64,000 nucleotides of DNA from Escherichia coli (GTDB lineage Bacteria > Pseudomonadota > Gammaproteobacteria > Enterobacterales > Enterobacteriaceae). A program made the translations under genes and the position numbers. The stretch lies in assembly GCF_045037415.1 (NCBI RefSeq), contig NZ_CP173438.1. One strand, written 5' to 3'. The notes under the pieces were generated by a model, which saw only the letters and a list, made by a program, of their open reading frames with translations, searched no databases and was not told where the DNA came from. This document shows, one piece after another, positions 12,904 to 63,389 of the stretch. How positions within the stretch are numbered: the stretch's first letter is position 1; every line of letters begins with the position of its first letter.

Positions 12904-12996
12904 GGTGAGGTGGCCGAGAGGCTGAAGGCGCTCCCCTGCTAAGGGAGTATGCGGTCAAAAGCTGCATCCGGGGTTCGAATCCCCGCCTCACCGCCA
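12904..12996 (+). tRNA. serV: tRNA-Ser (anticodon GCU)
   Basis: 93-nt cloverleaf with long variable arm, anticodon loop CTGCTAA, 3' CCA encoded. Confidence 0.93.
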
Positions 12997-12999
12997 TTT

Positions 13000-13076
13000 G
13001 CATCCGTAGCTCAGCTGGATAGAGTACTCGGCTACGAACCGAGCGGTCGGAGGTTCGAATCCTCCCGGATGCACCA
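13000..13076 (+). tRNA. argV: tRNA-Arg (anticodon ACG), copy 1
   Basis: 77-nt gcatccgtagctcagctggatagagtactcggctacgaaccgagcggtcggaggttcgaatcctcccggatgcacca; anticodon loop CTACGAA. Confidence 0.93.
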
Positions 13077-13140
13077 TCTCTTACTTGATATGGCTTTAGT
13101 GGCGGTATCAAAAAATCTGCAGTAAAGTAAGTTTCCCGAT

Positions 13141-13217
13141 GCATCCGTAGCTCAGCTGGATAGAGTACTCGGCTACGAACCGAGCGGTCGGAGGTTCGAA
13201 TCCTCCCGGATGCACCA
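13141..13217 (+). tRNA. argY: tRNA-Arg (anticodon ACG), copy 2
   Basis: Identical 77-nt repeat. Confidence 0.93.
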
Positions 13218-13279
13218 TCTCTTACTTGATATGGCTTTAGTGGCGGTATCAATATCAGCAGTAAAATAAATTTCCCGAT

Positions 13280-13356
13280 GCATCCGTAGCTCAGCTGGAT
13301 AGAGTACTCGGCTACGAACCGAGCGGTCGGAGGTTCGAATCCTCCCGGATGCACCA
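13280..13356 (+). tRNA. argZ: tRNA-Arg (anticodon ACG), copy 3
   Basis: Identical 77-nt repeat. Confidence 0.93.
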
Positions 13357-13419
13357 TCTCTTACTTGATATGGCTTTAGTAGCGATATCAATATCAGCAG
13401 TAAAATAAATTTTCCCGAT

Positions 13420-13496
13420 GCATCCGTAGCTCAGCTGGATAGAGTACTCGGCTACGAACCGAGCGGTCGGAGGTTCGAATCCTCCCGGATGCACCA
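13420..13496 (+). tRNA. argQ: tRNA-Arg (anticodon ACG), copy 4
   Basis: Identical 77-nt repeat. Confidence 0.93.
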
Positions 13497-16406: not shown

Positions 16407-16479
16407 AAAAGGCCACTCGTGAGTGGCCAAAATTTCATCTCTGAATTCAGGGATGATGATAACAAATGCGCGTCTTTCA
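16407..16479 (-). ncRNA. micA: MicA (SraD) small regulatory RNA
   Basis: Reverse complement reads GAAAGACGCGCATTTGTTATCATCATCCCTGAATTCAGAGATGAAATTTTGGCCACTCACGAGTGGCCTTTTT, matching the MicA sequence as I recall it, with intrinsic terminator. Confidence 0.85.
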
Positions 16480-22661: not shown

Positions 22662-22997
22662 TTATATAATCGCCATCACTTTCCAGGCGAGCCCATAGGC
22701 CAGCGCACTAAGCAGTGTTGGGATGATAATGCTGCGTGTTTTATAGAAACTGGCACCCAGTACCGCGAAGCCGACCAGTGTGGGCACGAAACGGCGTGTA
22801 TCGTGCATCACTTCTGGTGCGGTAGAGACAACCAGCAGAGCGCATATCGAGGCGATGCCAATGGTGTCGAGCAAAATACCTACCGCGCCACGTTTGGTTG
22901 GGCGGGCATTACCCACACGCAGGCGCAGCGGCAGATAGCGGAAGCAATAATTCGCCGCGCCAACCAGTAACCCAAGCAGCAGAACCTCATAGCTCAT
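22662..22997 (-). CDS. ygaH: Branched-chain amino acid exporter small subunit (AzlD-like)
   Basis: 111 aa hydrophobic ORF overlapping ygaZ. Confidence 0.85.
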
Positions 22998-23724
22998 CGG
23001 GCGCTCCTTGCCAGAATGCCTGGATTAACGCAGTGAGGCAGCCACAGACAATGCCTGCCAGAATGGCGACGGGAATAGAAAATAGCGTTACGCCTGCAAG
23101 GGCACCAACTAACGCTGCGGTAACGCAAAGAGATTGTTTGCGCTGGAAAGAGGCGAGCAGGAAACTCATAAAGAGTGCCGGAAGCATAAAACCTAATGCT
23201 GCTTCAACGGCGGGATAACCTTGCAGCAAGCCGCTGCCGGAGAATGCCCCTATTACCGTACCAAATACCCACGATGACCATGAACTGAAGGCAATGCCGA
23301 TCATCCAGTTTTCGCTCCAGCGGCGATTATTGCGTACCAGTTTTGCGGTTGCGGCGGCAAAAACCTCATCCGTCAGGCCAAACGCCCACAGGGCGGTTTT
23401 CGATTTTTGCAGACGCTGAATAATACGGCTACGCAGTGACGGGCCATACAAAACATGGCGAACATCCATTGCCATGACGGTCAGTGCAGCAACCCACAAA
23501 CTACTCCCGGCTGCCAGCATCGCGGTAATGACGAACTGGCTCGCGCCTGCATAAATGATGCAGGAGAAAAAAACGCTTTCGAGAGGAGAGAATCCCAGAC
23601 GGGTCGCATTCAGACCGAACGCAAAGGCCACCGGAATATAACTAATAACAATCGGTAAACTGTCTTTGCATCCTTCCATGAAGGTCGCCGAACCAGGAGC
23701 AGGCTGTGGAGTAGGGCTTTCCAT
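22987..23724 (-). CDS. ygaZ: Branched-chain amino acid exporter large subunit (AzlC-like)
   Basis: 245 aa polytopic membrane protein. Confidence 0.85.
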
Positions 23725-23847
23725 AGAGTGTACGCTTAACGATTGTTAATATTATAAATAGACTGAATGAATATCTTAACCTTATCAGACTGATGGGCTT
23801 CTTAACACCCTTATAAGTGTAAAGCCACGAAAACGGTTGCTGATTGC

Positions 23848-25032
23848 TTAATTTGCGGCTTCCTGACGATGAAAACCTCGCCACCAGACCAGTAAGTTAA
23901 CCAGGGCAATCGTCGCGCCAGCCAGACACACGCCAGCCCAACTGCCATGTTGCCAGGCTGAGGCTGAAATTAGCGAACCAGCGGCACCGCCAATAAAGTA
24001 GCTGGTCATGTAACCTGCGGTCAGGCGATTACGCGCATCAGGGTGTATTCGATAAATTACCGTCTGGTTAGTGATATGCACGCCCTGCACGGTGAGGTCC
24101 AGCACCAGGATGCCGATAATCAGCGCCAGTACGGAAGTGTGACCAAACCAGATTGCCAGCCATGAAAGTAACAGCAGAAGCAGACCGAAAGTTGTTGTGT
24201 GGTGCGATTTGCCCTTGTCGGCAAAACCGCCCGCCGGACGAGCGCCCAACGCTCCGGCAGCTCCCGCAAGTCCAAACAGACCAATTACACCATCGCTGTA
24301 GTTAAAAGGTGGAGCGGCAAGCAAAAAGGCCATTGAGGTCCAGAGAATGCTGAAGTTGGCAAAGGTCAGGCAGCCCAGCAACGCGCGGGTGCGCAGGATC
24401 TTATCGCTGATAAACATGCTGAAAACGGAACCAAGCAACTGTGGGTAGTTGAGGTGGGTTTCTGATTTCATTTGTGGCAGACCACGCCATAATGCCAGCG
24501 CCATCAGTGCCATTAACACCGAGGCAACCCAAAAGACGGTGCGCCAGCCGCCGAGGTTTGCCAGCAATCCGGCAACGGTCCGTGCGAGTAAGATCCCCAA
24601 TAGCAGGCCGCTCATAATGGTGCCAACCACTTTGCCGCGTTTGTCCGGTGAGGCCAGCGTCGCTGCCAGTGGAACCAGAATTTGTGCCACGACCGAGAAT
24701 AAACCGGTTAATGCCGTACCGAGGATCATCATCGCCAGTGACTGACTGCTGGCAGTGATTAACATACCGCCCGCTGCCAGTAAGGTCATCGAGACAATCA
24801 GGCGGCGGCGTTCAAACATATCACCGAGGGGAACAAGAAACAGCAGACCTGCGGCATAGCCCAACTGCGCGGCGGTAACAATAAAGCCCGCCGAACTGGC
24901 GGAAAGGGAAAAGTTACGCGCGATGGTGTCGAGCAATGGCTGGGCGTAATAGTTACTGGCTACCGCCAGACCGGTGGCGATAGACATCAGCACGATCAGC
25001 GCCGGGCTAAGCTCATGATTAGGTTTAGTCAT
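23848..25032 (-). CDS. ygaY: MFS transporter, intact reading frame
   Basis: 394 aa uninterrupted ORF with 12 predicted TM segments. Confidence 0.8.
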   Translation of the reverse strand: MTKPNHELSPALIVLMSIATGLAVASNYYAQPLLDTIARNFSLSASSAGFIVTAAQLGYAAGLLFLVPLGDMFERRRLIVSMTLLAAGGMLITASSQSLAMMILGTALTGLFSVVAQILVPLAATLASPDKRGKVVGTIMSGLLLGILLARTVAGLLANLGGWRTVFWVASVLMALMALALWRGLPQMKSETHLNYPQLLGSVFSMFISDKILRTRALLGCLTFANFSILWTSMAFLLAAPPFNYSDGVIGLFGLAGAAGALGARPAGGFADKGKSHHTTTFGLLLLLLSWLAIWFGHTSVLALIIGILVLDLTVQGVHITNQTVIYRIHPDARNRLTAGYMTSYFIGGAAGSLISASAWQHGSWAGVCLAGATIALVNLLVWWRGFHRQEAAN

Positions 25033-25135
25033 TATTTTTGTTCATCAGGTGATGATTAAGCTGGAAATCAATAATAGCGGATGTTGATGAATATGGGATG
25101 AAAGATAGATTGTTGAAATGTGCGGTGTGGTTTGT

Positions 25136-25215
25136 AGGTATGATAAGACGCGCCAGCGTCGCATCAGGCATTGTGTACAGAGCGGCGGATGAGGCAAAAA
25201 CGCCTTATCCGCCCG
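25136..25215. repeat. REP element plus hairpin in the proX-ygaY spacer
   Basis: gataagacgcgccagcgtcgcatcaggc REP-type palindrome and ggcggatgagg...ccttatccgcc hairpin. Confidence 0.55.
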
Positions 25216-25223
25216 AATAAAAA

Positions 25224-26216
25224 TTACTTCTGCGCTGCCAGCGCTTCATTCACCCAGCCATCGAACTGCTGCTGGTGGGCTTTGATCCAACCATCAACGT
25301 GGCCCTGAATATCGTCTTCTGAGGCTTTGCCGTCATGCATGATGGCGTTCTGGGCGTTAATATCTGCCACTGGTAACTGCATAATGGCAAACAGTTTCGC
25401 TGCTGCCGGGTTTTTCTCGGCCCAGGCTTTGTTGGCAACGATATGCATGGTACTGACCGGGAAGCCGTAATTCGCGCCATTCGGCAGTTTGGTATTGGCA
25501 TTTTTATCGCCCGGCAGTGCGGAGAACGGCACCTGCAACCAGACCACATCTTTCCCCGGTTTCAGTTCGTTACTCACCCAGTACGGCGTCCAGGTGTAGT
25601 AAAACACCGGCTTACCCTCTTTGTAACGACTGATGGTGTCAGCCATCATCGCTGCGTAGTTCCCCTGATTATGCGTCACGGTATTGGTCAGTCCATACGC
25701 GGCAAGCTGGTGGTTGATCGCACCTTCGCAGCCCCAGCCTGGGTTACAGCCGGTTAAATCCGCTTTACCGTCGCCGTTGGTATCGAACAGTTTGGCGATC
25801 TTCGGATCTTTAAGTTGCGCGATGTTGGTAATTTTATACTGGTCGGCGGTTTTCTTATCGATCAGGTAACCTTGTGCCGCGCCGTTAACAAATACCCCTT
25901 CACGATAAAATTTCTTATCGCCACCGGCAGCTTCGTACATGTTGTCATGCAGTGGCGTCCAGTTCACGGCGGTGAAGGTTGCATCGCCGGAAGCAAGCGA
26001 GGTGTAGCCAACGTTGTAATCCACTTCGCTGGGTTTATTGACGGTATAACCTAATTTCTCCAGCGCGCGGCTGACCAGCAGCGTCTGGAAGGTTTCTTCG
26101 GTGATGGTGCTTTGAACTGGATTAACTGTAATGCCTTTGCCCGGCAGGTCGGCAGCAAAAGTTTGTGTAGAGATAAGCGTGGCAAACGCTGTCGCAAAAA
26201 GTACGCTATGTCGCAT
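25224..26216 (-). CDS. proX: Glycine betaine/proline ABC transporter periplasmic binding protein
   Basis: 330 aa from [14 protein letters not shown] signal peptide. Confidence 0.93.
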
Positions 26217-43383: not shown

Positions 43384-44460
<1,077 letters not shown>

Positions 44461-45044
44461 TTACATATTGTTTTCTTATTGTGATCAAAAACAGCAAATT
44501 AATAACAAGTAATGTGAGGGATAAGAATTGGGTTGAAAGGAAATGAATAATTAAAACAATATATTAAGTGTGCTTATACTCTTTTTCGAACTGGTGGCAT
44601 TTGTTTAAATGCTATTTAAACTGCTTTTTCAGAGTTCAACTTACTGAGTTCCGTGTCGACTAATGTGAGTAAGATCAATCGCATCCAACCTATGTTACTT
44701 GATGGCATCGATAACAATATTAATGAACATACAGATTCCGGGAAGGCTGGCTATGGGGGCAAATTATTCTCTTTCTGGAAACGGGTAAATAACAGTGACC
44801 ATTTGTCGAGAAGCTGATACTGAGCTGAGGGATACTGTATATGTCTGGACTGTAATTGGATGAATTCTATTCAGGGCGGGTCAGGACCAATAAAAAAGCC
44901 CGCATCAGCGGGCTTTAATGTCATAGGGAGTCGCGACTCCGTTGCGTATCCTTTTTTGTCTCCTCACCGTCTGGTCGGTGTCCTGCTGAGACTTATAACT
45001 TCCTGTTTTTGTTGGTGTAGTCCTTACACCGTCCAATCATTATT

Positions 45045-45407
45045 TGGTGGAGCTGGCGGGAGTTGAACCCGCGTCCGAAATTCCTACATCCTCGGTACTA
45101 CATGCTTAGTCAGTCTTTACATTCGCTTGCCAGCTGCGGACGGACACGCCACTAACAAACTAGCCTGATTAAGTTTTAACGCTTCAACCCCAGGCAGGGC
45201 TTCCACGCGATCTCTTTTGGGTTTGACCTCTCTTGATCCCCGTCCTAAGAGCGGAGGCTAGGGAGAGAGGGCTCTAAGCAGGTTATTAAGCTGCTAAAGC
45301 GTAGTTTTCGTCGTTTGCGACTATTTTTTGCGGCTTTTTACGAGGCCAACCGCCCCTCGGCATGCACCTTGGGTTTCGCAAATCCCGTCGAATCCAGAAT
45401 CAGCCCC
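45045..45407 (-). ncRNA. ssrA: tmRNA (SsrA), 363 nt
   Basis: Minus strand begins GGGGCTGATTCTGGATTCGACGGGATTTGCGAAACCC and ends ...GGTTCAACTCCCGCCAGCTCCACCA; internal tag-peptide ORF region present. Confidence 0.95.
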
Positions 45408-63149: not shown

Positions 63150-63195
63150 TTTTTGTTATCAATAAAAAAGGCCCCCCGATTTGGGAGGCCTTATT
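63150..63195 (-). terminator. pheA attenuator terminator
   Basis: Minus-strand hairpin ggcctcccaaatcggggggcc followed by TTTTTTATT between pheL and pheA. Confidence 0.8.
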
Positions 63196-63238
63196 GTTCG
63201 TCTTCGCATTCTGTTTCACACGACGAAACGCCTCCCAT

Positions 63239-63286
63239 TCAGGGGAAGGTAAAAAAGAATGCGAAGAAAAACGGTGTGTGTTTCAT
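63239..63286 (-). CDS. pheL: pheA leader peptide (15 aa, Phe-rich)
   Basis: Manual translation [15 protein letters not shown] with seven Phe codons. Confidence 0.88.
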   Translation of the reverse strand: [15 protein letters not shown]

Positions 63287-63389
63287 GTTTGTTTCCTTAA
63301 GTGACTTTAGTACAGTACCCGTACTGTTTTCACGCTGTCAACAAAAAACGCGCCCGAAGGCGCGTTGGCGATACACTCAATATAAAGGA

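Follow-up and report, generated by a model that had tools for sequence, protein, structure and literature searches.

An intact ancestral ygaY in Escherichia coli and the probable origin of its K-12 pseudogene by loss of a 7-bp repeat unit

The ygaY locus and its product

The stretch of Escherichia coli DNA analysed here – 64,000 nt in length and referred to below as the window – contains, at 23848-25032 on the minus strand, an uninterrupted open reading frame (ORF) of 394 aa which, according to the ORF listing, begins with ATG and ends with TAA. The first-pass annotation had placed a continuous 394-aa ORF of an MFS transporter here; its coordinates proved exact, and the strand had been left unstated. 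The product matches the Pfam model MFS_1 (PF07690) with 141.3 bits and an E-value of 4.6e-41, against a gathering cut-off of 33.4, which makes it a member of the MFS; the ORF lies far beyond chance. The coding sequence (CDS) is 100% identical in DNA to one annotated as an intact ‘MFS transporter’ in SK1144 (WP_000165701.1), and the ORF, the Pfam match, this identical annotation and hydropathy jointly describe the feature as an intact ygaY CDS, encoding an MFS transporter of the YnfM family. The 1551-nt region used for searching, which includes the flanks, was found with 100% identity in SK1144 and three other genomes, and 5,413 of the 5,426 complete genomes of E. coli contain a match that covers at least 80% of it.

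On the same strand, proW and proX lie upstream of ygaY, and ygaZ, ygaH and emrR (also called mprA) downstream. The upstream neighbour, proX, occupies 25224-26216 (minus strand; annotated in the identical SK1144 region), and the downstream neighbour, ygaZ, which encodes a subunit of an L-valine exporter, occupies 22987-23724 (minus strand; ORF listing and SK1144 annotation). This position between proX and ygaZ-ygaH-emrR is also that of K-12 ygaY (b2681; UniProt P76628; TC 2.A.1.36.3), whose locus has the same neighbours (proX-ygaY-ygaZH-emrR/mprA), and it supports their orthology. Wider comparisons drew on an outgroup sample from the Enterobacteriaceae, for which one genome per species was scanned and the best 80 of 350 relatives were taken: in 74 of these 80 loci the gene immediately upstream of the ygaY orthologue is proX, and ygaZ lies downstream of it in only 28. 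The window ORF contains neither a frameshift nor a premature stop – the marks of a pseudogene – and is collinear with the 80 orthologues.

A relative within E. coli is YnfM (b1596, TC 2.A.1.36.1), a member of the same MFS family but a distant paralogue of YgaY and no orthologue. BLASTP aligns the two proteins over their full length (409 columns) at 25% identity with an E-value of 1e-19, a similarity that supports common family membership, and in TCDB YgaY (P76628) has the number 2.A.1.36.3 within the YnfM family, its function being given as ‘unknown’ (PMC5417439).

A Kyte-Doolittle hydropathy profile of the product resolves 11 segments that reach at least 1.3, of which six belong to the N-terminal half and five to the C-terminal half. 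No segment reaches this threshold of 1.3 in the gap from residue 318 to residue 364, where TM11 is presumed to lie; with 11 clear peaks and one presumed helix, the ygaY product is predicted to be a 12-TM MFS carrier. The loop between TM2 and TM3, located by hydropathy, contains the motif-A-like sequence GDMFERRR (residues 70-77; 24802-24825, minus strand), found by pattern search, which fits part of the motif-A consensus G-x3-D/E-R/K-x-G-R/K-R/K, and a second sequence resembling a copy of the motif, GGFADKGK, stands at residues 268-275.

Several Rfam landmarks fix the position of the window, whose orientation is inverted relative to K-12 coordinates: five tandem tRNA genes resembling the serV-argVYZQ cluster (12904-13493), four of them with identical scores; the sRNA MicA (16407-16478); and the pheA (Phe) leader (63162-63287). 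The tmRNA gene ssrA lies at 45045-45407 on the minus strand and about 680 nt beyond it come glaH/csiD, lhgO, gabD, gabT and gabP (window 43384-45407). Whereas K-12 carries the 22-kb cryptic prophage CP4-57 at ssrA (2755941-2777971), the genome of the window has neither a prophage nor an island there.

The K-12 lesion and its origin

The first-pass annotation had stated that ygaY is interrupted in K-12 and annotated there as a pseudogene, a statement borne out by the reference annotation and by alignment alike. In the MG1655 reference (NC_000913.3), ygaY (b2681) is a pseudogene of 1178 nt at 2808316-2809493, and in a PGAP-annotated MG1655 assembly (NZ_CM151407.1) the gene appears as ‘MFS transporter, frameshifted’. 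The pairwise alignment that had been suggested for locating the damage finds a single indel: 7 bp are missing from K-12 at nt 255-261 of the window CDS, the exact placement being ambiguous by 3 nt. Apart from this one 7-bp gap, the columns of the CDS alignment are on average 98% identical (96.5% DNA identity across the 1551-nt region with its flanks), and outside the lesion S364G is the one change in amino acid. The K-12 reference was checked for an ORF as intact as that of the window, which would have spoken against the statement, and K-12 proved to be frameshifted.

Whereas the window gene runs uninterrupted, K-12 ygaY, lacking the 7 bp, is a frameshifted pseudogene in which the original frame meets 14 stop codons; its remnants are an 88-aa ORF that starts at the native ATG and a 305-aa ORF that starts at the internal Met90 codon. 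By hydropathy, the break comes midway along TM3 (residues 78-96), just past the motif-A-like GDMFERRR, and a complete MFS fold could not, on this topology, be reached by either fragment. The lesion site as a whole (CDS nt 255-269, codons 85-90; window 24764-24778, minus strand) carries the imperfect repeat GGCAGCGGGCGGTAT in the window.

A 70-nt query spanning the K-12 junction has gapless matches in 356 of 5,404 complete E. coli genomes – in 354 of them at no less than 99% identity and in 2 at 95-99% – and aligns with a 7-nt gap in all the remaining genomes. The strongest matches come from 353 genomes, and K-12 laboratory derivatives account for 60 of 60 among the matches listed, where the junction carriers include MG1655, C600, J53, DH5alpha, DH1, HMS174, RR1 and NCM3722. 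Frameshifts in ygaY were met in these K-12 derivatives (among the matches listed) and, independently, in isolate S115. The gene is annotated as intact in EDL933 (O157:H7), NCTC86 and Z1322HEC0001: the EDL933 (WP_000165714.1) and NCTC86 (WP_000165680.1) proteins are each two residues away from that of the window and the Z1322HEC0001 protein one or two, while the SK1144 allele is identical to it, Ser364 included.

Among the alleles sampled, the closest intact one to that of K-12 is found in NCTC86, in which ygaY measures 1185 nt and the ProX and YgaZ protein accessions are the same as in K-12. Nucleotides 256-269 of its CDS (locus L086, 1237-1250, equivalent to window 24764-24777) read GCGGCATGCGGCAT, a perfect 7-bp tandem repeat (GCGGCAT)x2, whereas the window allele reads GCAGCGGGCGGTAT at the lesion site, an imperfect repeat. 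A three-way comparison shows that the NCTC86 sequence minus one repeat unit equals K-12 exactly, save for one SNP at CDS nt 867. What makes the repeat of NCTC86-type alleles perfect is a GGC-to-TGC change that replaces Gly88 by Cys; Gly occupies this position in 77 of the 80 outgroup orthologues. The perfect-repeat allele is itself in frame, and a dedicated query recovered it, identical over 84 nt, from 682 genomes from varied hosts.

Judged from this comparison, the perfect-repeat allele is the substrate of the K-12 deletion, and recent replication slippage offers the simplest account of the event. A Gly88Cys substitution in a K-12-like allele would have created the perfect 7-bp repeat GCGGCAT x2, from which one unit would have been lost by slipped-strand replication; the loss of 7 bp would then have shifted the frame in mid-TM3 and left the K-12 pseudogene as a recent, lineage-specific defect. 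The deletion is considered recent since, with respect to NCTC86, hardly any other change has occurred.

A second deletion was met in S115, a clinical isolate from urine (NZ_CP158441.1; locus L089, 2781-3946), which has lost 19 bp at CDS nt 252-270 (window 24763-24781). Its ygaY is annotated as frameshifted, and the deletion is independent of that of K-12 and lies at the same spot; the pair, two cases only, hints that the lesion site may be a minor hotspot of deletion.

That ygaY is a pseudogene in K-12 and that other E. coli have intact alleles is already known and stands in public annotation. A literature search for functional data on the gene turned up only its uses as a pseudogene or integration site, papers on proVWX chromatin and the TCDB listing, and none of the papers searched documents expression or transport experimentally for an intact allele. 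K-12 ygaY has served as a control pseudogene (bioRxiv 10.1101/072470) and as a site for chromosomal integration (PMC11731478). Added here are the reading of the lesion as a lost 7-bp repeat unit and the second, independent deletion at the same spot.

Ancestral state, selection and the codon 364 variant

In all 80 outgroup loci, the ygaY orthologue is a single uninterrupted ORF, 391-396 aa long and with 79-98% protein identity to YgaY of the window. The sample includes Escherichia albertii and Escherichia sp. E1V33, Citrobacter, and Salmonella enterica subsp. arizonae and diarizonae, as well as Enterobacter, Leclercia, Kosakonia, Kluyvera and Buttiauxella. Across these outgroups, the lesion region (codons 82-95) is gapless – most of those shown read MTLLAAGGML there – and the 7-bp-shorter sequence, looked for in the close outgroups, is not carried by them. 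With 80 of 80 orthologues from other Enterobacteriaceae uninterrupted and the lesion region free of gaps, the intact state must be the ancestral one, and the earlier suggestion that this genome keeps the ancestral allele holds.

The window and K-12 sequences differ by 43 substitutions, of which one changes an amino acid (dS 0.148, dN 0.0023, dN/dS about 0.016), and 264 of the 394 YgaY columns are conserved in at least 95% of the orthologues; on these figures, the protein is under strong purifying selection. From this we infer that the intact alleles are functional, and that YgaY is made and active in their carriers: the low dN/dS is the main, if indirect, argument, and the conserved upstream signals discussed below are a further one.

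It is highly probable that 23848-25032 contains the intact ancestral ygaY, a YnfM-family MFS gene, and that the K-12 pseudogene is a recent, lineage-specific defect, most simply explained by slippage. Two competing views of the K-12 sequence, for neither of which support was found, deserve mention beside it. The pseudogene might be an artefact of sequencing or annotation, K-12 being truly intact, but this has next to no probability and is refuted by the recurrence of the same junction in 353 independent assemblies (including MG1655, C600, DH5alpha, DH1, J53, HMS174 and NCM3722) and by the agreement of the curated reference and PGAP, both of which mark ygaY as a pseudogene. The short K-12 form might, conversely, be the ancestral one, a 7-bp insertion having joined two genes into the window allele; against this stand the 80 orthologues, full length without exception and gapless through codons 82-95, as well as the nature of the K-12 fragments, which are pieces of one MFS fold broken in mid-TM3, so that this view, too, is refuted and its likelihood vanishingly small.

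The single residue by which the window protein departs from K-12 outside the lesion is a caveat to the reading of an intact, functional gene. Codon 364 of the window (23941-23943, minus strand) is AGT, for Ser, where Gly is found in 80 of 80 orthologues, in K-12 and in NCTC86, EDL933 and Z1322HEC0001; with this residue the last hydrophobic segment of YgaY begins. G364S is derived in the window allele and could reduce its activity. The 57 nt around the codon are identical to the window in 719 of 5,396 E. coli genomes, and S364 is therefore an established polymorphism and no fresh defect.

Probable function, upstream signals and regulation

What YgaY might transport, and in which direction, has to be judged by distant similarity. 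In C. glutamicum, YnfM exports glutarate, succinate and 2-oxoglutarate (PMC7873477), and for E. coli YnfM arabinose is entered in a 2024 table of transporters as a substrate identified earlier (PMC10971958). Every NCBIfam match of YgaY scores far below the cut-off of its family, and none supplies a name at the level of a substrate; the longest NCBIfam alignments are with efflux families, namely PRK03545 (sugar efflux; 63 bits against a cut-off of 401), Cmx/CmrA, Bcr/CflA and EmrD. A sequence search of the PDB returned SotB (6kki) over the full length with an E-value of 1.7e-4, EmrD over the full length but weakly, and GlcP (3e-8) over the N-terminal half only. The DHA1-type exporters SotB/YdeA, Bcr/CflA, Cmx/CmrA and EmrD share with YgaY its predicted 12-TM MFS architecture and a weak full-length similarity, yet YgaY falls outside these families, its scores being far under their cut-offs.

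Since the characterised YnfM proteins mediate efflux and the best full-length matches are efflux carriers, export is the direction that suggests itself for YgaY, and we regard the chances that the protein is an exporter as evenly balanced. An intact YgaY would most likely work by alternating access coupled to the proton gradient, at a best guess as an exporter. Its study is impossible in K-12; strains whose ygaY is intact, among them that of the window, NCTC86 and EDL933, are the place to look for phenotypes.

The spacer between proX and ygaY is 191 nt long and has at its start a REP-type repeat (25137-25214, minus strand), recognised by the Rfam model naRNA4 (RF02564) with a borderline 61.6 bits against a gathering cut-off of 59.5; related copies of this repeat explain why the DNA search matched several places in each genome, 6 at the median. 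A scan of 23650-25350 for sigma-70 promoters and terminators found nothing in the spacer above shuffle expectation, and the sequence before the ygaY ATG shows neither a strong Shine-Dalgarno sequence nor a canonical -35 element.

Two conserved elements emerge when the 140 nt before the start codon are aligned across 13 taxa, each from a different genus. One is a -10-like hexamer, TATTAT (25071-25076, minus strand; 38 nt upstream of the ATG), part of a putative ygaY promoter: the pattern TATnAT is invariant in the alignment and came to light solely through this cross-genus comparison, the generic sigma-70 scan having left it unflagged because the -35 is weak. The other is a conserved box at 25107-25123 with the consensus ACCGCACAATCCAnCAC, whose GCAC core (25120-25123, minus strand) is likewise invariant among the 13 taxa. 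The combination GCAC-N30-55-TATNAT is present in 77 of the 80 outgroup loci, as against 1.6% of shuffled spacers, and in 48 of the loci the distance from GCAC to TATNAT is exactly 42 nt. Box and hexamer together probably constitute a dedicated promoter that depends on a regulator, perhaps an activator, for which the GCAC box may be a candidate binding site. A reading of the GCAC box as part of a sigma-54 -24/-12 element was considered and rejected, the downstream TTGC being absent or unconserved. This conserved upstream motif is the third addition made here, and it provides a starting point toward the regulator.

Work on K-12 provides some context for the regulation of the gene. Transcripts of K-12 ygaY rise after osmotic shock, which has been attributed to read-through from proVWX, and H-NS is reported, from a ChIP signal, to bind at ygaY and to form a bridge between ygaY and the downstream regulatory element of proVWX (PMC10656529; bioRxiv 10.64898/2026.02.10.705075). 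The presence of proVWX upstream in 74 of 80 loci, the conserved box and hexamer and the transcript rise after osmotic shock are what prompts the thought that YgaY is a regulated transporter acting together with ProU, for instance by letting out compatible solutes, or a related metabolite, as a release or efflux valve. We consider this idea speculative and its chances slim; if it were true, the K-12 pseudogene may have left a role of YgaY unstudied.

The same observations raise the question of whether ygaY, intact as it is, might be cryptic – a word already applied to it (PMC10656529) – either because it is silenced by H-NS or because G364S has inactivated the window allele. H-NS might indeed largely silence the gene, given its ChIP signal and bridge at K-12 ygaY (PMC10656529; bioRxiv 10.64898/2026.02.10.705075), and the cryptic state would also agree with the generic scan, by which no canonical sigma-70 promoter was found in the spacer, and with a Ser in place of the glycine that is invariant in 80 of 80 orthologues. 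Such a state is rather unlikely, however, in view of the long-term selection indicated by a dN/dS of about 0.016 within E. coli and by 79-98% identity across genera; the 719 genomes that share the sequence around codon 364 argue against a recent degenerative mutation, and the -10-like hexamer and the box upstream of it have been conserved. An intact gene whose product is made and active is the reading that we prefer.

The spacer itself varies: in some genomes the match to the search query breaks off at position 1514 or 1426 of the query, or about 100 extra bases are present.
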